This document shows, piece by piece, positions 38,052 to 53,747 of a stretch of 60,000 nucleotides of DNA (position 1 is its first letter; each line of letters opens with the position of its first letter). The translations under genes were made by a program, and so were the position numbers. The notes under the pieces are model-generated. The model worked only from the letters and a program-made list of their open reading frames with translations. It was not told the DNA's origin and ran no database searches. The DNA is from Callorhinchus milii (Eukaryota): assembly GCF_018977255.1 (NCBI RefSeq), contig NW_024704742.1, positions 106,580,001 to 106,640,000 of the forward strand. The letters are read 5' to 3'.

Positions 38052-40175
38052 CGTTACAGTAAAATTGTGACACCAGGGATTTCATGAAATCCCTGAAATT
38101 ATTTTAACCAGATAGACAAATCTCCAGGACCTGATGGATTCCACTCCAGGGTATCAAAAGAAGTAAGGGAGGAAATTGCAGATGCTTAGTCATAATTTTC
38201 CAAAGATCTCTATATTCGACAATTCTGCCCTTGGGTTGGAAAATTGCAAATGTCACTCCATTATTTAAGAATGGAGGAAGAGAGTTAACCAGGTCAGTTG
38301 TGGGGAAGTTACTGGAATCTCTCATCAAGGACAGAGTGATTGAGTACATGGACAATCAAATCAATGTAAATCAAACAGAGTCAGCGTGGATTTGCGAAGG
38401 ATAGATCATGTCTGATGAATCCAATTTAATTTTTTAAGTGGATGAGCCCGGATATGGATATCGTCTACTTGGACTTTCAGAAGGCATTTGATAAGGTTCC
38501 GCACAAGAGGTTATTAGCAAAAATAAAAGCGCATGGAATTGGAGGTAATCCTGCAACATGGCTTGGTAATTGGTTGGGAGGCAGGAAACAGAGAGTAGGG
38601 ATGAAAGGAACATTCTCTGATTGGCGGGATGTGATAAGTGGTGTTCACCAAGGGGCTGTACTGGGGCCTCAGCCGTTCACCATATTTATAAATGACTTGG
38701 ATGAAGGAATAGAGTTTTATATCAAAATTTGCAATTACGCAAAGTTAGGAGGCACAGTAAATTGTGTAGACAGGAGCACAAAATTACAAAAGGACTTAGA
38801 TAGATTAAAAGTGAGTGAGTGGCAAAACTGTGGCAGATGGAATTCAATGTGGGGAAGTGTGAGGTCATCCACTATGGTTCCAAAAATAGCAAAGCAGAAT
38901 ATTTTCCAAATGGTGAGAAACTAATAATTGTGGAAGAGCATAGGGATTTAAGTGTCCACTAAAAACAAGCTCACAGGTACAAAAGGTTATGAAAAAGGCA
39001 AATGAGATGTTGGCCTTTATTTCAAGAGGGATGGAATAAAAAGGAGAGGAAATGATGCTTTCAACTGTATAGAGCCTTGGACAAACCATATCTGGAGTAC
39101 TGTGTTCAGTTTTGGGGACAGGACCTCAGGAAGGATATATTGGCTCTGGAGGGGGTGCAGCGCAGATTCACCAGAATGATAGCAGGCCTTAAAGGGTTAA
39201 ATCATGAGTACTGGTTGCATAAACTTGTTCTCTATTCCCTTGAGTTTAGAAGGTTGGGGGGTGATCTGATTGAGGTTTTTAAAATAATTAAGGGATTTGA
39301 TAGGGTGGAAGCAGAGAAACTTTTTCCTCTGGTGAGGGAATCCAGAACAAAGGGACATAGACTTAAAATTAGAGCTAAGCCGTTTAGGAGTAAAATCAGG
39401 AGGCAGTTTTTCACCCAAAGAGTACTGGAAATCTGAAACTCTCCCCCAAAAGGCTGTGGATGCTGGATCCATTCACATTTTTAAGACTGAGGTGGATAGA
39501 TATTTTTTAGGTCAGGGTATCAAGGGATACAGGGCAATAGCAGGTAATTGCAATTGAGGTATAGATCAGCCATGATTTTATAGAATGGTGGAACAGGTTT
39601 GAGGGGCTAAATGGTCTACTCTTGTTTCTATGTTTCTATACTGATAGCCTTGCCTTGACACTTGTTAACATTATTAACAAATAAATAGCACATTATGAAA
39701 CTTCATTTTTTATTCACCATAAACTTCAAATGACATTTCATTCACTGATGAGTCCAATGTTCATTTGAGCGAGACTTCCATGACACCAGGAATTACATTT
39801 TTAGCTTTGCTTTGAATCATTTACACGGTTGGTCTGACATTTTTTTCTGACCGCAGTTAAACTTTGTAAAGCCTTGTCCACCACAAACAGACAGCGTTGT
39901 AGAGTGACAGTGACTTCTCCTAGTTGACGCAGGTCAAATTGGTTCCTGGAATGGTGACACCTCTGGATGCTGGCCTTCCCTGCTATCTTGTACTGGTCAG
40001 TGTCTAAATCTCTCTTAATGATAACACCAAAGCTGTTCCTGGGATCCCCTCTACTGCTGGGATCACGTTTTCACTTAATCCCTGACTCTTAGTTTCAGTG
40101 ATTTCATGGTTTCACAATTTTCTTACAATTTTAAGGATTTTGTGAAATCACTGGTTTCACAACTTTACTGTAACA
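38052..40175 (-). mobile_element. Ginger2/TDD-type DNA transposon deletion derivative, interrupted by a CR1
   Basis: 49-bp TIRs (38052-38100 and 40127-40175, 41/49 identical) with (T/C)GTTACAG...TAACA ends; TATA on both flanks; frameshifted RGDPRN.FGVI...SRNQFDL...GGQGFTK...KCQTNR...CNSWCH on - at about 39765-40060. Confidence 0.8.
38104..39640 (+). mobile_element. CR1 LINE, degenerate RT-to-3' fragment
   Basis: DIVYLDFQKAFDKVPH, SGVHQGAVLGP, PYLEYCVQFW, RLGGDLIEVFK; TTTCTATG-type tail. Confidence 0.92.
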
Positions 40176-43100
40176 TATATACTATGAAACTCTTATCAGT
40201 TATTTTTATAAAAGACTCGGGCATGGGCCACCACCAGGAACAGTTCTTTATTCAAATATTTCTTTTTCTTTCCTGTCTCTGCTTTCCACTTAAGTGTTTC
40301 TGTACTTTGTCAGGCTATTAATCTTGAACTTGCCACCAGGAAGGAGAGGGTGAGCAGAAGTTAAGCACTTCTCTACATAGAAGAACAAAAATCAATCAAA
40401 GTCACCCTGAGGTATTTCTACATGCTTCCTGACACCCAAATGCACTGGAAAACCCTGAAATCAGGTTAGTTCCCACCCTCTAGGCCAGGAATTATTCAGG
40501 GAGACCTACAATGGGAAGAAAGTAAGACAATTTCCAAACTCATATAAGAATAAGTTAACTACAAAGAGTACAATATCATTATATAACAGACGTGCTGAGG
40601 TGACTGAAGGCTGAGCCAGTATCACAACTGTCATAGGTATTGTGGGGTTGAAATTCTGGTAGCCAAACAGTACTTGAATAAAAGGGTCTGGATGGTGGTC
40701 CCATATATATTTCTCAGTCTCAGTCTGTAGCAAAGTGAAAATCAGATGGCAGGATCATAGAAAATCATAAGGCATTTTCAAGATGAGGCTGTAATCCTAG
40801 ATTAACCAGGTAGTGAGATAATAATTGTTGCTTGGACATGTCCACCCTACATAAACCATAAATTGACAGAAAATGAACCACAAACGTATCAGTCCAAGTT
40901 GTTGGAGCTGTGAGCTGAGCTCCACCAACATCATTGATGTTTAGTACATAATTTTGATCCCTAAAAGAGTAAACTTTTTAGGTTGGAGGCGTAGGACGAG
41001 TGGAGCTCGAGTTAGTGCAGAGATGTATTTTAGGACACTCACTGCAGGAATAGAGCACGTGATCTAGGAAATGTCACATTGATACAACAACAACAAAAAT
41101 TACATTTGTATAGCACCTTTCAAGTCGGGAGGACATCCTGAGGCCCTGGTATTAGGAAATAGGAACATGCAAAAAGACCGTGAGAATCCTGCTCAGTCTG
41201 ATTTTCAAATAACATCTCTTCCTATCTCACATAATCCTCAAACTCCTTCACCAATTTACAATTACTGCCATAGCACTGCTAGAGAGCTGTGTGGTATTTG
41301 GCTAGACCAAAGAGGGTAGCATGCTAACTGTTTTTACTGAGCAAAGCAAGCAAAGCAAATGAACCATTGCACATGGTGCCAGTCAAGCATATGGAAAGGG
41401 TATTATAATAATACTAATTAATCCTTGCATATGATATAGTACATTATCACATTGTCATGAAGTCTCAAAACACTTCATAGGATATACTGTAAAGTAGTGT
41501 GACTGTGTAGGTACAAAAACCTTGAGTGTTTCAACTAGAGTGGCGTTGGATAAAAAGGGATCTATTAGTGGCCTTCAAAATACCGAAATGTTTTAACAGG
41601 ATAGTGAAGGAACAGGTATTATAGAATTTGCAACACAGAAGGAGGCCATTCAGCAGCCTATTTAATGCTACTTCCCTGCCCTTTGCCCATATCCATAATG
41701 CTACTATTTGTAGGAGGCTGATATTTTGTTCACCAGGTTCATCAAGCCATTTCTGAATAGTCTTATTAACTGTCCCAGTTACACTGATCTGATGATTACA
41801 GGAACTATGTTTGTTCTATACTGCCACATACATCCTCATTCCAAGTTTTATTATTAATTGGACATTGATAATTTTTGTAGTACTTTTCTGGCCTAAATGG
41901 GTGCAAAGTGTGCCTACAAAAACAATCACTGAAGCATCACCTTGTTAAACATTGCTATAGATCAAAACCAATGACAGTAAATACTTGTAGAGGGCTTTGA
42001 GTCATTTTAATGTGACAAGACTCTATAAAAATGCAAGTTCCTTCTTCCTTTATGGCAGAAGATCGATACTGGAGGAAAGTGAGGCTTAAAAGTGAAACTG
42101 TGATTGAGGTGTTATTGTATCCTCAAGGAGATTCAACATCATGACCACTCCTTTGGCAGTGAGCGTTAGATCACTAGGAACATCCAGGCATTGGTTCTCT
42201 GTATATTAGGGAAACACCAAAACACTGTATTCTGCCCCATGATTTGTTTTATGTATTCTAAGCAAAATACCCAGTTTAATATTTGGAATTGCAATTATTT
42301 AGGCATTGGTATATAACAGCAAATATTTGTGAACTCAATATAAATAAGTGGTGCATTGCCTGGACTGAACTTTTGATGATAGAATTCATAAACTGTTCAT
42401 GCATAGTCACCAGATGGAGGCAGTGGCCTAATTTTACAGTTTAATTAGTGTGTAGTGTATAGAGAATATTCTGCGTCATTGGTGGCTTACACCTTAGTGT
42501 AATCCTATCAGATCATTGGCCTGTGGAAATTGGAGATGGCAGATATGCACCAACCCTCAAACATTCATTATTTCTGTGCTGTTGTTATTCCAGACCTGTC
42601 ATTTGCAAAATCGAATGATATACTTTCTATCAAAGCTGTCATCCTGAAGAGTTCAGCTGGATCTGAGACCAGAAAGTACTTTGTTCATAAACACAGAAAT
42701 CTTTCCAAGTCTATACATCATGTCTAACATTATCCACCTTGGGGAGAGGGAAGGTGTTAAACCTTGTGGGGATGAACTCTATCCAAGGAGACATTTCAGG
42801 TGAAGCCAGGCAGGTCTGCAATAATCATTGCTGATGGTTGTCTAGTCTGTCTGACCGATTCATTAATAAGGCTTGGCGATGCAGGCATGCAATGGAGCCT
42901 AAACTCTAACAGTTGGGACTGTTCTAGCTAGATATATACCCTGAAATGTACCAGTGCTTCCAACTGATAAACTATACAGTTTCAAGGCCCATTTCAAGAG
43001 CTTCCTCCTTGATTGTGCTTTTGGTCATTTTCTCAAGCCCACCCTCCTTGCTCTCCACCCGTCTTGAATCTAAGCAATGTTTTGAAGGAGTATAAAATGT

Positions 43101-44351
43101 TATCTTATTTACGTCTTAGATGGAATATTACTACTGGATGGAAGGATGATACAACTGACATGCATCGAATGAAGGTAAGAGATGAACTTCATCCTCAATC
43201 ACTATTTGCAAGCATCACCACAGTTAAACCCCTACCCCCACACCCCCATTCACACCTTACTGTCTCCGAGTCTGTCAGCAAACACAAATCAAGAATCAAT
43301 GAACAGTAACTTATTATTCCTTCATGAATAGATAATAATAATAATAATCCTTGCATTTGGTAAAGCACCATTCACGGCTTCTCAAAGTGTTTCACAGAAT
43401 ATACTGTAAAGTGAATTTATTGTGTATTTTGTGGGCGAAACATGGCAGCCAATTGCTCACAGCAGTGTCCCACAAACAGCCGTGGACAATAAATGCAACT
43501 GTGGATACCTATCCATTGCATTGTTTGTTAAATGTGCACAATAAAGCAAAATATCCTTTCTCTTTGAAAAGTTTAAATTAAACATCACTCAATGGCTAAC
43601 AACAGAATTCCATAACAGATCACAATTATATAAAAAGGCACAATCAAAATCCCTGTGATTGACTTTTGAGAATGCATTGTTTTTCACATCTTCAATTTTT
43701 TTTCTTTTAAGGTGTCAAACATTAACTGTATGCACAAAATATTTCTCTCTCACTGTTCATCATAGCCATCAAAACTCCTTTAATGAAACCCAAACTGTTT
43801 TAATAGTCTGGCAACTCCAGTGTTTACATTTTCCATACCACATGCATGCATTTAGTTTTGGCATATACAGCATTTTTTCATTTGTGGTCAGCATTTTCTT
43901 AATGCACAATTTTCAAATATTGCTCAGGTTTACAAAATTAATAACACGCAATAAAGCTGTGTTGTGTAGGTTCCATCCATTGTAGAGGCATTGCAAATAG
44001 GAACGTTTGTTTTTATTGATGTCGCAGAAGGTGTACTTCCCAAAGTCTCATAATGCAAGTTCCAAACAACTCCTAGATGGAGCTGAAACTCATGGTTGCA
44101 TAAGGTGACATGCAGTGACCAATAAATCACTAATCGGTCTATTAGTTTCTAACACTGAGAGATTATTGGAAATTGAGTTCAGCCCAGGATGATTTCATTA
44201 CTTTGGTTCACTAAATAATAACATCAGTCATGGATTATTCATGCAGGGTGTCAGAATTCTTTATTTTGGGGAAAGCAATAAACAGCTGGACTGGATACCA
44301 GGAAGAAGAGGCCAGACACTGGCCTTACAAATCTACAAACACTTTGAAAAC

Positions 44352-46300: not shown

Positions 46301-48426
46301 TTCTGAGCTTGTGTCTCCCTTGTTCTGTATATTGCTAACCACATTAAACATATTGTTGGCAGTTGTTTCATCGTTATCCTTCAGAATTGTGAAAAGAGAA
46401 GAGCCGGGAAGAAAACTGGAGAAGAAACACTGGCAAAAATAAAAGGGCATACATAGGTTTAATTTTTTTTATTCATTTAAAAGTGTTAAAATAGTATCTC
46501 CTGTAGAGTATTAATATCACATGAATAAAGTAACCTCTGACATTTGTATTATTAAGGTATGTTTCAGCATCATCTTGTGCGAGCTGAAATATTAAAAACA
46601 TGCCTGGCTAAGGAAGCTTGGAATTCCTGGTAATTCTAGCAGTTTAAAGGTTAATACTTGTTCATGTTTCCTTCCGTTAAAAAATAATGTCCTATAAGCA
46701 TTATCCTCCATGCACACCTCATGCTTGCTATACAAGAGAGACAGCACAAGCAAGACACATTTTTAAACAACAGTGCTTCACTCGTGCTAGCCAGGTTTGT
46801 TGATGTAGTCAATGACATTTCAGTTTGTTCTGATTCTGGAAGCAGGACAAAGGACTTCATCCAAACTACTCCTATGCAACTCAGAACCTCACTGTTGAAA
46901 CACTCCTACATCTGACATATCTTCAATCTTAAATTTAGCAACAAACGTGGACTAACTATACTATATACTATAACTATACTATTTTGTCTTAATGTTGTGA
47001 GTATAGGTCAAGGTGAGGGGTTGGGAACAGGAAGGTGTCAAAGTTGCATTATTATTGTATAAGTCAGTCTAAATACTGCTCATAGTATAATATGTGTTGG
47101 ATTCTGAGTCTATATCAGCTCCAACTGTTACACAGCACAAGACCCATTTCTTGATGGGCTCAATGGAAACGGAATAGTCAAATGAGCAGGCAATTCAGTT
47201 TCTTTGTAACCGATTTTTGTTCCAAATTTACTCCCCAGTAGCCATAAATAACTATGGTGATTCTACATATTGAGTCATGTAACCCAGCTACACATCAGCT
47301 AAATGCAGCTTGCTTGGAATAGTACATGCCAGACACCCACTACTGAGCGCAATAACAAGCTGAAAATGAACCGAAGTGTAAATTAAGCTATAAAAAGTTA
47401 TAAATAACAATTGAATGATTAAAAGCAAATCATGTATTCAAACGTTTGAATAACAATAAACTGGGAGTTTGTTGAGGTGCATGATACTATTTGATCACCT
47501 CCAACTTGCAATTGCTCTCTCCAAATGTTTATCCTCTATCTAATGTATGCAGAGGATGCTGGTCTCCTGCACTGTGCAGTGAAATAAAACTTAATATTAG
47601 AAAAATTCAGATTCAGACACTTTTCATTCAAATCATCTGATTTGATTATTGGCAAAGAGAAGGGCTGAAAACAGGGTAATACTGCCCCCATATGTTTCAA
47701 AGTGATGTGGAATAACACTGGGCAAATTGCTTGTCAATGACTAGACACACATTGAGTTTAAGTTGTCAAATTTTTGCCATCACAATTTCTCAATGCCTTC
47801 CTGCCTGGTTATGCATGCCAGGCCTGCATATTCAACCATCTATTTCATTGAACAAATCCCATGACTTGCACTATAGAGCTTTTCACATTTTGTGCTGTTT
47901 CTTTAATGGTTTGTAAAATCACACACAGCTCTTAAACAGCTTTCTGCTTTTCATATACTGCAAATCGGCTCACAGTACATGTTTTCATTCCTTCATTCAC
48001 TTTTTTGAGTACTCAAATTAAATTGAAAAACAAAAAGCAATATCACATTAGCCCTACAAGAGATACAATTGAGTTTTAGCATTGTTGAATATTTACTCAT
48101 GGTGTATCCTCCTGTAAATTGTGTGACCTTACTGTATTGTAGTCGTCTCATCGCAGTCACCTCCCACAGTCAATCCCATTTCAAAACTCATTTTAGCAGT
48201 CAGCATGTTTTTCCTTTTATTGAGATTACAGTAATTTGTTACAAAAATTATAAATGACAGAAATTGAGTACGGCTGTAATTTAATATCATCTGAATCCCA
48301 AAAGTAAATTAAATGTCTGATGACTCACTCCCAACCATCCACAATTTAAAATACTAGCATTTCAAGATTACATTCTGAAGATTCTTAGAAATTGGAACTG
48401 AATTCTTCTGAGAAAACAAAGGCAAT

Positions 48427-48933
48427 TTAGGAGAGCCTTGATGGGCGAAATCCGGAGTATGAACCCTTAGGATCAGGAAAAGCAGCTCTGATTTTCCACA
48501 CGCAGCAGCTGGGAATGATACGCTTGTTGCCAGTTCCCAAACATCCATGCTGCCACATAATGTACTGCCTGTATGCTGCATGTCTCAGCTCACTGTTGTG
48601 GCTATCATTGGAGAATGCATGCAGGCCAAATAATTCATTTCGATAATTCAACATCAGTTGCAGCACTGCTTCATTCAAGCATAGGTTGGCCATAGCAGAG
48701 CTTATACTTATGCAATGTTGCTCTGTTTTCCCGCAGCACACTTTCTCTATGTCTGTAAGCATCTCCCTACACAGGCCACACAAACACCAATCGGGGATGC
48801 TTGAGGAAGCCTCATGGACGGAACAACTTGGTGTAGCATCCTGTAGGAGGTCTATGATCAACCCAGGATTCCTCTTTACCAACCGCACAAAAATAGCTTC
48901 CAGCTTTAAACGGTCAAGTCTGGATGCCAAGTT
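48427..48933 (-). CDS. P2X7-ballast/nanor-like gene, coding exon 2 (Cys-rich Zn-coordinating domain)
   Basis: tttctttgcag|NLASR...WCLCGLCREM...VCC...HC...LRHAAYRQY...IPSCCVWKIRAAFPDPKGSYSGF, the motif order of the P2X7 C-terminal ballast; 106-nt GT-AG intron; AATAAA on - at 48216-21. Confidence 0.9.
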   Translation of the reverse strand, partial: NLASRLDRLKLEAIFVRLVKRNPGLIIDLLQDATPSCSVHEASSSIPDWCLCGLCREMLTDIEKVCCGKTEQHCISISSAMANLCLNEAVLQLMLNYRNELFGLHAFSNDSHNSELRHAAYRQYIMWQHGCLGTGNKRIIPSCCVWKIRAAFPDPKGSYSGFRPSRLS

Positions 48934-49039
48934 CTGCAAAGAAATATACAGAGTGGGTAAGAATACCAAGTATTCCTTGTTTTTCCTTTACAAAGTTTCT
49001 ATTTCACTTGCCCATCTTTTGCTATTCCTGTTCTTTTAC

Positions 49040-49264
49040 CTGGATTTCTTTCTCAATTTCCTCCTCAACCTTTTTCTGTTCTTCCTTATATTGCAGAGCT
49101 GAATTGGTGCTTGTGTTTGAATCGTCCTTATGGCATTCCTGTGTCATTTTCTTGCTGGTGGATGATATGGATCTGCGATATGGAGCACGGCATTTTGTTT
49201 TGGCTCTTGCTCGTTGTGGTCCTTTTCCTCTTCTCCCACGCACACTGGATTGGCCCCTGTTCAT
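49040..49264 (-). CDS. P2X7-ballast/nanor-like gene, coding exon 1 (basic then charged segment)
   Basis: ATG at 49264; MNRGQSSVRGRRGKGPQRARAKTK...EEIEKEIQ|GTAAAA; phase 0, 75 codons. Confidence 0.75.
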
Positions 49265-51065
49265 TATTATTATTGTTAACACTTAACAGCACATGCATTG
49301 AATTGTCTCCTTAAATGCAATATATAGTCCACAGTCGGTCCTTACTTAGCATTCCTTTACACCTTTGTGTGTGGAACTATTACACCTGTTGCTGGAAATA
49401 TATTTCTAATTGTTTTATTAGAAATATATTTTTTAAACAAATGTAATAAATAATAACCTTACATTTGGTAAAGCACCTTTCATCTCTTGAGGACGTCTCA
49501 AAGCTCTTCATAGGATGTACTGTGAAGCAGAGTGACACTGTTTTCTACACAAAACTAAGGCATGTGTTATGGCCTCTTACACCAATGCTTTATGCTTTAT
49601 ACCAAATTGTTTTTCAAATGAGTAAAAATAGATATGATAACAGATGTCAGACACAGTTTCCCTAATTTTACTGCAGGTACTCTTTAAGCTTAATGTAATA
49701 ATGTAGGTCCTTCCAAGTGTTGGAATAGTTCTCCCTCAGGTATGTTTGAGGAATCCAGCAAATATTGGATCCAACTCAACTCATAACTCTCAAACTAAAT
49801 GTGGAGTTCTGAGATATCACACTGGACTCATTCAAATAGACTCTTGAGTCTCACACTGCTCCAGATTTGTTCAATTGAGAAAACAACTGCTACTATAATT
49901 CTAATGTGATATGTGCAAGGGAAAGTTATCATATGACATAAAACTAAGTAGACTAATTTGCAGTGGAGCCCCCTTTTCCCCCATTATAACCCTGGACCTG
50001 TAGCATAATATAAAGAGTGAATAAAGAGCTGCACAATAAATCTTAGTAGCCAAAATGCTAGTCGTCGATGATGGCTATGAACAGACCACAGTACAACTAA
50101 ACCAGACATTCTTCATAAAAACAAAATAACATAACTGCACATACTGTAAATTTAAATGTTGGTTGAGAATATATTGAAGGCTACAATGCATTCTCAGGCT
50201 TAAAATATTTCTCTTATTCTCTGCATGTGTTATTGAGCAAGTGGAGATTTTAATATTTAAGAATGCATGTTTATCCCTCAGCTTGCTCAATCTTTGCTCT
50301 CAAAATTCATGACATCACCCAACCTCCTTGAATTTGAATTATCCTTGTAACACACTCCTTGATATTTTGTTATTCTCTATGTAATTATAGTAAACAAGAA
50401 ATATTCAAATATAACAGTGACTGATATCCAACTTTTAAACTATTCTCTGAACTTACACAACAATAAAAATATGTGGACAATAGGAAAATATTATACTTTA
50501 ACATGTGCATAGTTAATCTGAATGTTACATGGAGGAATAGATATATGAGGACAGTGATGTAACTCTGATGTGTTAACATGTGCTGCATTAAAGCATGTCT
50601 CAGGGATTTGAAACTTCCTTATAATGGAAACAAACTTTGTTCCTGATTAGTCTGAACCAGCAAGCCAACTTCTATGAATAAATATTGAATTAAATTTTAT
50701 AAATGATATAGCTGCTCATAAATATGAGCAAGTCTAGAGTGTTTGGAAGAGTCTTCTGACAAATCGCAGAGCGAGTTGATAAGCAAGACATTTTTTGACC
50801 TTGAAATATCAGGCCTTACACTGCAACCTACTGGAGGCTGAGTGGAAGTGCAACTGACTAGAAAATTGGATTAATTTCTTTAAACTAGTGTTGTGCAATG
50901 AAATGGACAACTCTCAGGCTGTTCACAGGCAAGAACCTGCATCCTACCAAAGCATCACTTGCATCTCTCCACTATTCCACCAGCTCCTCCATGTCCTTCC
51001 CCACTGCAATTCAGTTTTCCCCATAGTGCTTTAATATTTATAGTTAGCAATTTCAGGAAACTTAC

Positions 51066-51100: not shown

Positions 51101-52627
51101 CTGCAAAAACAACAGAGTAACAACGAATTAAGATTAGGATGTGCCTCAACAAATCTTTCAGTTTTTTTCAGCTGAAAGATAACAACTAATGTCTACATTT
51201 TCTAGAATTAAGATGTTGGATTTGATTTAACATTTGACCTTGGAGATAGTAAAATTCCGATCTCTGCAGTTCTAAATATCCAGGGGTCCATTCCCTAGTG
51301 GATGGCAAAACAAGTATAAAATCTGATGTTTGCCAATCAGCCTAGGCTGTTTGTTGTCAAGTCTGTGCCACATGCACCATTCATTATGGTTGGTGTCGGG
51401 TGGGAGAGATTGTGAAGTAGAAGATCCATCAGTTCAGTGTCCTGGCCTCAAACCCCCTTCCTGGCAAACTGTCAGTAATTACCCTTCTGTAATTACTTCC
51501 TGGTATGTTATCTGAAATTGTCCTTTGCAAACCTATGTCCTCTTGCTCTATTGTCCACGTGCATCCTAAAGTGTTGATCTGGGTTTACTTTTTCAATCCT
51601 ATTTCTGATTGTGTACACCTTTATAATAAGGTCTCTTCTGAGTCATCTTCTCTCAGGACTGAAGATCCCTATAATAATAACATAATAATCCTTGTGTTTG
51701 ATATAGCGCCTTATCATGCCTTCGAGACATCTCAAGGCGCTTCACAGAATATACTGTAAGGTGATTTGACTGTATATTTTGTGGATGAAAAATATTTTTA
51801 AAAATCCCTAGCTTGTTGCTTATAGCTCATTTGAGCCCAAGGCCTTAATAACTCTGTCACTGATTGAATTCAGATTTTGGTGTTGGTGCAACTGTGCAGT
51901 GCAAAGAGTTAGAGGTAACCAATGGCCCAAATACAAGGTAAATATGTTTCTGTATGGTGCCTGAAATAGAAATCATGATGAGGTGTCACAGAAGTTATAA
52001 CCTATTGGAGCCTAAAATGATGCTGTCTCTTTCACAGTAGCTGACTGTTCTAGGAGATGAGGAAAAAACTAAATAATAAATATGGTGCCAAGTTAAAGCA
52101 GCACTCAGCAAATCTGACAAGTTATAAAACCTTTATGGCACCTTAACACATCCAAATGTCTTAAAGCACTTCACAGACCATTACTACCAGGTGTAGCGAT
52201 TATTTTTGTAGGCAAATGTGGAATCCATTTGAAGCACTGCAATACCCCACAAGCAACCATGAGGTGAATCATCAAGAAATCTTGAGGACTGTTGACCAAG
52301 ACAATGGGAAAAAACTCCTTCTTGTTTTCAAACCACGTTTAGAATCAACGACTGCCCAAACAGCCAGATGGGCTGTTGGTTCAACACTTGATCCGAAAGA
52401 TAATACCTCCAATAATGCAATCCCTCAGTGGCTACTGATGGTCAGTTTTATTTAATGCTGCACATATCTTTTAAAGTTTTTACATGTTGAAATTTCATTT
52501 GGTTTTGCAAGTTATTTTGTTATTATTGAAAATGTTTATGAAAAATGTATTTATCATTGGAAACGTTTATGAGATAAGGTATTAAAGGATTCTTTTATTA
52601 CTTTTCCCATTAAAATACTGCAAATGA

Positions 52628-53351: not shown

Positions 53352-53483
53352 CTGGTATTCCTGGAGCTGAAGTTGAGACAATCGGTCACTTGTATTGTGC
53401 CATAGAGATGAGAGACTGCCCAAGCTCCAGGATCCTGGTTTGAGGATTTTGAAGAACCTTGCTTTGATTCCTTCCTGCACCAT
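53352..53483 (-). CDS. CIB1-like gene, coding exon 1 (start uncertain)
   Basis: Ends NTSDRLSQLQLQEYQ|GTAACA, matching CIB1 exon 1 (SRLSKELLAEYQ); in-frame ATG at 53483, out-of-frame ATG at 53403. Confidence 0.75.
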
Positions 53484-53731: not shown

Positions 53732-53747
53732 GTGACGTCACTTCCTG
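53732..53747. promoter_or_regulatory. CRE palindrome overlapping an ETS-like core, candidate CIB1-like promoter
   Basis: GTGACGTCAC plus ACTTCCTG about 250 bp upstream of exon 1, beside a locally CpG-richer stretch (53545-53650). Confidence 0.45.

Follow-up and report, generated by a model that had tools for sequence, protein, structure and literature searches.

Intron 2 of a CIB1-like gene in the chimaera Callorhinchus milii harbours a two-exon unit that encodes a ballast domain, the zinc-binding domain known from the P2X7 receptor. The unit lies in a stretch of 60,000 nucleotides (nt) of assembly GCF_018977255.1 (contig NW_024704742.1, positions 106,580,001 to 106,640,000), which is referred to below as the window and is numbered from its first letter; unit and host gene are both read from the minus strand (Table 1). 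We consider it probable that this is an ancient, domesticated, single-copy ballast unit of the KolX/nanor type, which serves as an alternative 3' end of the CIB1-like locus. The new point is that, judging from their sequences, the ballast proteins of elasmobranchs begin with the exons of the host gene. A more far-reaching proposal is put forward tentatively: the CIB1-like gene would have acquired the sole chondrichthyan ballast gene as an alternative 3' module, the fusion of the CIB leader with the ballast unit would have been kept since before the chimaera–elasmobranch split, and the exon capture that gave rise to P2X7 would have been repeated independently at this locus.

Exon 2 of the ballast unit matched the Pfam profile P2RX7_C (PF20478) with 131.5 bits (cut-off 23.5; E 4.5e-38) over positions 60-192 of the 192 in the profile. 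Among P2X7 chains, those of rat, human, and mouse were matched with E values of 8e-23 to 9e-24, the best of these for rat residues 470-592 (E 9e-24). All cysteines of the zinc cluster (rat C479, C482, C498, C499, C506, C572, and C573, plus C477) were aligned and present, and rat P2X7 residues E496, R546, H547, Y550, and R578 were also kept. The columns of the zinc-binding cysteines and the equivalents of R546, H547, Y550, and R578 showed no variation, or conservation of at least 90%, among 22 relatives. Three of the five residues that contact guanosine diphosphate (GDP) in rat P2X7 (R546, H547, R574, R578, and K583) are retained, with R574 replaced by V and K583 by D. According to Rump et al. 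(2020; PMC7016195), the same two positions are lost in fish P2X7 and in nanor-like proteins.

The AlphaFold2 model of exon 2, which was based on a 22-sequence alignment, had a mean local confidence (pLDDT) of 80.1 and a predicted template modelling score (pTM) of 0.68. Foldseek comparison of this model with the PDB yielded P2X7 structures as the best 14 matches, all with a probability of 1.00 and with tight alignments of about 2.8-3.0 Å over about 129 columns; the first match to any other protein had an E value above about 1. By sequence and model alike, exon 2 encodes a domain with the predicted ballast fold, the full set of zinc-binding cysteines, and a partial guanine-nucleotide site. A preliminary description of this locus had recognized the domain by its cysteine cluster and its RH.AY and YSGF motifs, and had proposed profile and structure comparisons with the P2X7 ballast. 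Both comparisons returned P2X7; the domain identity is hereby confirmed, and the motifs are real and, given the Pfam E value, far above chance.

The isolated P2X7 ballast is a soluble trimer, which binds GDP and Ca2+-calmodulin (PMC9574498). By analogy, we infer that the chondrichthyan ballast protein would be a soluble, Zn2- and GDP/GTP-binding oligomer. The basic linker ahead of the domain may, to judge from its composition, direct the protein to nucleic acid or to the nucleus. A basic N-terminus is common to many stand-alone relatives.

The two ballast exons join in frame into an open reading frame (ORF) of 243 amino acids (aa) with the junction ...EKEIQ/NLASR.... Recomputation of coordinates and frame reproduced this join over a 106-nt GT-AG intron, and the downstream AATAAA of the preliminary description was also located, together with an ATTAAA. 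A transcript using these signals at about 48.2 kb would terminate within host intron 2. The word-indexed protein search returned 20 proteins, of which the best was P0003, a 184-aa UniRef entry from C. milii named 'P2X purinoreceptor 7 intracellular domain-containing protein'. Where the two share segments, its sequence does not differ from that of the window. The entry begins at an internal Met and employs a different in-frame intron of 166 nt (48904-49069, minus strand; GT 49069, AG 48904). This intron choice removes 20 residues, all of which are retained in every elasmobranch model. The EKEIQ/NLASR junction is therefore the conserved one; its peptide (...EIQ/TLASQL... in elasmobranchs) is kept in all five NCBI elasmobranch models. 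Given the internal start and the loss of 20 conserved residues, the gene model behind P0003 is probably not the best one. Rump et al. (2020; PMC7016195) also list an elephant-shark Ensembl gene and a little-skate expressed sequence tag among ZCD/nanor-like sequences. In view of this listing and of the UniRef entry, the gene itself is not new; since it is already catalogued, the added value of our analysis lies in its nesting and in the fusion.

For host exon 4, the PDB search ranked CIB1 first (residues 57-111, E 4.3e-15), with CALM-1, CIB2, CIB3, and calcineurin B behind it. The last host exon aligned end to end with the C-terminus of CIB1 (residues 144-181, E 4.5e-8), amid many generic EF-hand matches. 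PDB searches with host exon 3 alone and with host exon 5 alone gave no matches. All four host exons from 3 to 6 are accompanied by canonical splice sites. Exon 3 is presumably part of the same gene, as suggested by its splice phase and by its resemblance to CIB1; this phase is also that of the acceptor through which the ballast unit could be read in. The ballast unit sits in intron 2 of this apparently intact CIB1-like gene, between exons 2 and 3 and on the same strand, exactly as had been described.

Evidence for a fusion of the two genes comes from elasmobranchs. Their ballast proteins are longer at the N-terminus, and tblastn placed the extra residues on the window at the positions of host exons 1 and 2 (53483-53352 and 51100-51066). 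Host exon 1 matched the N-terminal 43-44 residues of the ballast proteins from catsharks and skate with E values of 8e-6 to 3e-5 and 51-52% identity (22-23 of 44 residues). The peptide encoded by host exon 2 is identical to that of elasmobranch proteins in 10 of 11 residues, and it is the sole such motif in the window. Six of the eight chondrichthyan proteins retrieved possess this peptide (P0004, P0005, P0032, P0029, P0030, and P0006), and four of these six also carry exon 1. Across the 209 proteins fetched, the motif occurred in six, all of which are elasmobranch orthologues. The two chondrichthyan proteins without it are P0003 and P0031, the latter of which begins inside the ballast intron.

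All elasmobranch proteins that reach ballast exon 1 (six out of six) carry host exon 2 in front of it. One of these, the fused skate protein P0006 (286 aa), derives from a contig of 1,108 nt. The four counterpart exons span about 5 kb in the window; the contig must therefore be spliced RNA. Where the window has the ATG that opens the ballast frame (49264), a Met is missing from the elasmobranch sequences, so that in these fishes the linker can be translated only through the host leader. The claim that the gene is 'stand-alone' is doubtful in the light of these findings.

In two proteins, skate isoform X2 (P0029) and that of bamboo shark (P0004), exon 1 is swapped for a short first exon (MRTIKTK... 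or a lone M), while host exon 2 is kept. This suggests alternative promoters 5' of exon 2. Searches for longer proteins with host exon 1 as the query yielded three candidates, none of them significant, and a search of a protein atlas with residues 1-57 of the catshark leader gave no usable match. A published description of the CIB1 link or of a host–ballast fusion was not found in a search that did not extend to the figure supplements of Rump et al., and the four text supplements of that paper (PMC7016195) contain no mention of CIB1, Callorhinchus, or ENSCMIG.

In C. milii, joining host exon 2 (phase 2) to the AG at 49258-49257 produces an open frame of 296 aa (...KHEII-R-GQSSVRG...). The ballast exon would then start at 49256, 8 nt past the ATG. 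The features expected of an alternative 3' module are present, namely location on the same strand, a phase-compatible donor at 51065, an open in-frame acceptor, and the AATAAA at 48221. Several points weigh against the use of this module. The read-in acceptor is weak, with 9 pyrimidines in the 25 upstream positions versus 17 of 25 for the acceptor of host exon 2. An open in-frame AG is not significant by itself, as 7 of the 11 in-frame AGs that were tried gave an open frame. Also, the window has an ATG 8 nt 5' of the read-in acceptor, and elasmobranchs have none. With other AGs open, a weak acceptor, and an ATG of its own, the 296-aa frame of the window signifies compatibility rather than proof. 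Furthermore, P0003, the sole catalogued C. milii protein, has no host leader; no C. milii protein above 294 aa and no longer, fused ballast form appeared among the 6 matches from 621 candidates; and it is the genomic sequence that points to a fused form in this species. Five of the six fused elasmobranch proteins are XP_ catalogue entries designated 'uncharacterized protein LOC...', and the position of the ballast unit within host intron 2 is established in the C. milii window only.

These points leave room for a different arrangement in C. milii, namely a nested gene that has its own promoter, starts at ATG 49264, and encodes a 243-aa nanor-like protein independently of the host exons. This is a serious alternative, though we regard it as rather unlikely. 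The ATG at 49264 opens the whole ballast frame, a TATATA motif lies some 60 nt 5' of it (at about 49322-49327), the read-in acceptor is weak, and P0003 does without host exons. The basic N-terminus does not need the leader to be complete, as is also the case in the stand-alone relatives from shad, crinoid, scallop, and oyster. However, host exon 2 precedes the ballast in every elasmobranch protein that extends to ballast exon 1, in four cases together with host exon 1, and a local transcription start site in C. milii is putative. The ATG at 49264 is, moreover, preceded by an out-of-frame ATG (49296-49298), which opens an ORF of 60 aa (49131-49310). Both this upstream ATG and the TATATA could bear on the efficiency with which a locally initiated transcript is translated from 49264. 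On the sequences compared here, fusion appears to be the mode conserved in chondrichthyans and is also the likelier mode in C. milii; a 243-aa stand-alone product may coexist with it.

The proposed search for orthologues in cartilaginous fishes revealed them in bamboo shark (Chiloscyllium plagiosum), in two catsharks (Scyliorhinus canicula and S. torazame), and in skate (Leucoraja erinacea, isoforms X1 and X2), with 72-74% identity to exon 2. Identities counted against four orthologues were highest in the ZCD (94-99 of 126 residues, 75-79%), followed by the helix ahead of it (25-28 of 42) and the basic linker (17-25 of 72). At E <= 1e-3, the exhaustive HMMER search retrieved 1859 representatives of the family, among which the chondrichthyan cluster stood apart: the skate representative scored 269 bits, and the remainder scored 151 bits or less with identities not exceeding 50%. 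The closest relatives outside the chondrichthyans are 'P2X7-like' proteins of shad, starfish, scallop, oysters, and amphioxus, several of which are multi-copy.

A quick maximum-likelihood tree was calculated from 56 of 58 rows, the other two being left out because they covered fewer than 100 query residues. The four chondrichthyan rows formed one group with a Shimodaira–Hasegawa-like approximate likelihood ratio (SH-aLRT) support of 100, in which the chimaera was sister to the elasmobranchs. Their end branches were short (0.07-0.18, versus a median of 0.59). The ballasts of teleost P2X7 appeared as a separate clade elsewhere in the tree, whose deep forks were unresolved. About 140 family representatives scored nearer to the C. 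milii gene than teleost P2X7 did (34-40% identity). With so many closer relatives and no pairing with P2X7 in the tree, the special relevance to the origin of P2X7 that had been ascribed to this gene is not borne out.

Chimaeras and elasmobranchs separated about 400 million years ago. Vertical inheritance since that split, combined with an intact frame, implies purifying selection, and the sequence comparisons portray the ballast gene as old, constrained, and vertically inherited through chondrichthyan history. Population data add little to this. Four sequencing samples from one study proved to be genomic DNA, with an even depth of about 8-12x through the introns and with collinear contigs. 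No variant was listed among them in the coding sequence (CDS), which is weak evidence, given that 23 variant places in 16.8 kb predict only about one. The possibility that the ORF is unexpressed or decaying in C. milii, as a pseudogene kept open by the slow evolution of chimaeras, is very improbable. In its favour, the proteins retrieved include no NCBI-sourced C. milii model; it is contradicted by the intact frame of 243 codons, the canonical splice sites, the retention of all zinc-binding cysteines, the short end branch, and, weakly, the variant-free CDS.

Copy number was assessed in the entire C. milii assembly of 991.5 Mb (0.99 Gb). The six-frame protein search gave two matches among three candidates, the gene itself and one decayed relic (contig C4, 44621045-44621257; E 1.2e-4) with 34% identity over 72 residues and four stops. 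Interpretation of this relic as the lost ballast exon of a P2X7 gene was rejected, as no P2X exons were found on its contig. The P2RX7_C profile search produced a single match among eight scored candidates, again the gene itself, and neither of these searches detected a second intact ballast exon in the assembly. DNA searches with positions 47800-49900 listed 42 matches (40 of 1440 candidates were scored), one of which was the query locus. The remaining 41, with 77-87% identity, were all confined to a short interspersed repeat that lies outside the CDS (49426-49567). The ballast gene is single copy, and its CDS is unique at the DNA level among the matches listed. The repeat itself, of about 100-140 bp and located 165-300 bp 5' of the ballast ATG, is the sole multi-copy part of the ballast locus.

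The survey of 95 ORFs of at least 55 aa in the region 37-56 kb against Pfam found no transposase family, with the reservation that Pfam may hold no Kolobok-specific model. Above the cut-offs, only the ballast ORF and one reverse-transcriptase fragment were recognized; two further matches remained below them. No convincing terminal inverted repeats (TIRs), which in Kolobok elements are flanked by TTAA duplications, were found, the inverted repeats bracketing the gene (14-24 nt, 75-93% identity) being at chance level among 29 pairs in 10 kb. Exons of the P2X channel (PF00864) were likewise absent from the 95 ORFs. P2X exons in the assembly occur on contigs C8 (two loci) and C10 only (11 matches among 21 candidates). 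Their presence without a second ballast exon agrees with Rump et al. (2020; PMC7016195), by whose account typical P2X7 is not found in chondrichthyans.

The preliminary description was accurate in reporting neither P2X channel exons beside the gene nor a transposase or matching TIRs, and the copy-number check that it called for yielded one intact copy. One intact copy, no credible TIRs, and conserved orthologues exclude the scenario of many TIR-flanked copies and leave the suggested domestication well supported. It is hardly credible that the gene is, without function for the host, an ordinary KolX passenger or a recent remnant of a Kolobok DNA transposon: KolX of Kol0 Kolobok elements does have the ballast fold (Kojima and Bao, 2022; PMC9587614) and the nearest non-chondrichthyan relatives include multi-copy invertebrate 'P2X7-like' proteins, but a single intact copy in 0.99 Gb, the lack of a transposase among the 95 ORFs (as far as Pfam models reach), bracketing repeats of chance quality, and orthologues that follow the species tree from chimaera to sharks and skate with 75-79% ZCD identity all speak against it.

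The probable explanation, an alternative 3' end of the CIB1-like locus, can be outlined as follows. A unit in which a basic linker and a helical segment precede a Zn2-Cys and putatively guanine-nucleotide-binding ballast domain would have resided in host intron 2, on the same strand, since before the chimaera–elasmobranch split. After host exon 2, splicing to host exon 3 would give the CIB1-like calcium sensor. Alternatively, host exon 2 would be spliced to ballast exon 1 and the transcript polyadenylated near 48.2 kb; the predicted product is a 56-residue CIB1-type leader followed by the ballast unit, 296 aa in total in C. milii. The host gene would supply both promoter and start codon for this fused form, and expression from the CIB1-like promoter would be governed by the choice of the terminal exon. 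A host gene would then have taken up a ballast exon for the second time, independently of P2X7, in the jawed-vertebrate lineage that lacks this receptor.

To our knowledge, the function of the ballast domain has not been established, even in P2X7. The locus offers a clearly domesticated ballast gene, single copy, vertically inherited, and constrained, in a lineage that has no P2X7. It would add a second case in which nature has captured a ballast, and its soluble product would be tractable in studies of zinc and GDP binding. If the tentative capture proposal is true, the fusion is still 'two-headed' and could serve as a living intermediate of exon capture. It may also couple the locus of an EF-hand sensor to a ballast domain; in P2X7, this domain binds calmodulin.

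Table 1. Exons and signals of the CIB1-like host gene and of the ballast unit nested in its second intron (positions in the window)
Feature	Position	Strand	Remarks
Host exon 1	53483-53352	-	44 codons, phase 0, GT donor 53351; located by tblastn with elasmobranch N-termini
Host exon 2	51100-51066	-	35 nt, ending in phase 2; encodes ELTFLKKHEII, followed by two nt of an Arg codon; GTAAG donor at 51065
Ballast-unit start codon ATG	49264-49262	-	opens the entire frame
Ballast-unit exon 1	49264-49040	-	75 aa; basic R/K/G-rich linker and start of the helical segment
Ballast-unit intron	49039-48934	-	106 nt; GT 49039-49038, AG 48935-48934
Ballast-unit exon 2	48933-48430; TAA 48429-48427	-	168 aa; P2RX7_C (ZCD/ballast) at residues 28-163
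Polyadenylation signals	span 48216-48285; ATTAAA from 48285, AATAAA from 48221	-	motif positions alone
Host exon 3 (putative)	37719-37614	-	canonical AG/GT; marks the 3' end of host intron 2
Host exon 4	32272-32119	-	ANPFKERIC... segment; CIB1-like, canonical splice sites
Host exon 5	25405-25287	-	two EF-hand loops carried by exons 5 and 6
Host exon 6	24782 to ~24694 (3' limit approximate)	-	match to CIB1 C-terminus

Some further elements were noted at the host locus. A palindrome resembling the cAMP response element (CRE), TGACGTCA, is located at 53733-53740, about 250 bp 5' of the host ATG at 53483. It may belong to the promoter from which the fused ballast isoform would be transcribed as well. 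Host intron 2 contains the above-mentioned reverse-transcriptase fragment (38430-38921, plus strand; RVT_1, E 6e-11), a decayed retroelement. Very high-copy repeats are present in host introns 1 and 2 at about 43171-43731, 51586-52146, and 40927-41487, where the summed contig depth of the four DNA runs reached about 2e5, 5e4, and 1e4, respectively, versus a background of about 10.

Among known systems, the nanor (nnr) and nanor-like proteins (PMC7016195) share with the 243-aa model a short basic N-terminus and a zinc ballast domain without any channel part. They also share the conserved cysteine set and the partial GDP site, in which R546, H547, and R578 are kept and R574 and K583 are lost. 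The grouping of elephant-shark and little-skate sequences as nanor-like follows Rump et al. (PMC7016195), whose account is also that nanor genes lack conserved synteny. The C. milii gene differs by its location in a CIB1-like intron and by the absence of a myristoylation-type N-terminus (it starts with MNRGQ or MVQEG); the elasmobranch products differ by the added host leader. Stand-alone relatives from shad, crinoid, scallop, and oyster have the same full-length layout, with an Arg/Gly/Lys-rich N-terminus, a helix, and the ZCD.

The origin of the ballast domain is debated: it has been considered an ancient metazoan module (Rump et al., 2020; PMC7016195) or a derivative of Kolobok KolX (Kojima and Bao, 2022; PMC9587614). 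According to the latter authors, such stand-alone proteins are KolX of Kol0 Kolobok elements, and nanor is a domesticated KolX. A transposon origin of the ballast unit is plausible. As compared from the published description (PMC9587614), KolX shares the ballast fold and its conserved cysteines with the C. milii protein. In contrast to KolX, the C. milii gene is vertically inherited and single copy, with no TIRs and no transposase seen. Being single copy and without TIRs, it is not an active KolX.

The P2X7 ballast (PDB 6u9v and others) resembles the C. milii domain in sequence (E 9e-24), in predicted fold, in its zinc-binding cysteines, and in three of the five GDP contacts. In the absence of a channel, the C. 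milii gene does not encode a P2X7 receptor; it also has no C-cys anchor, and teleost P2X7 is only 34-40% identical to it. In both cases, a ballast exon has been added to the exons of another gene. The recipient here, however, is a CIB1-like EF-hand gene, whose own 3' exons stay intact.

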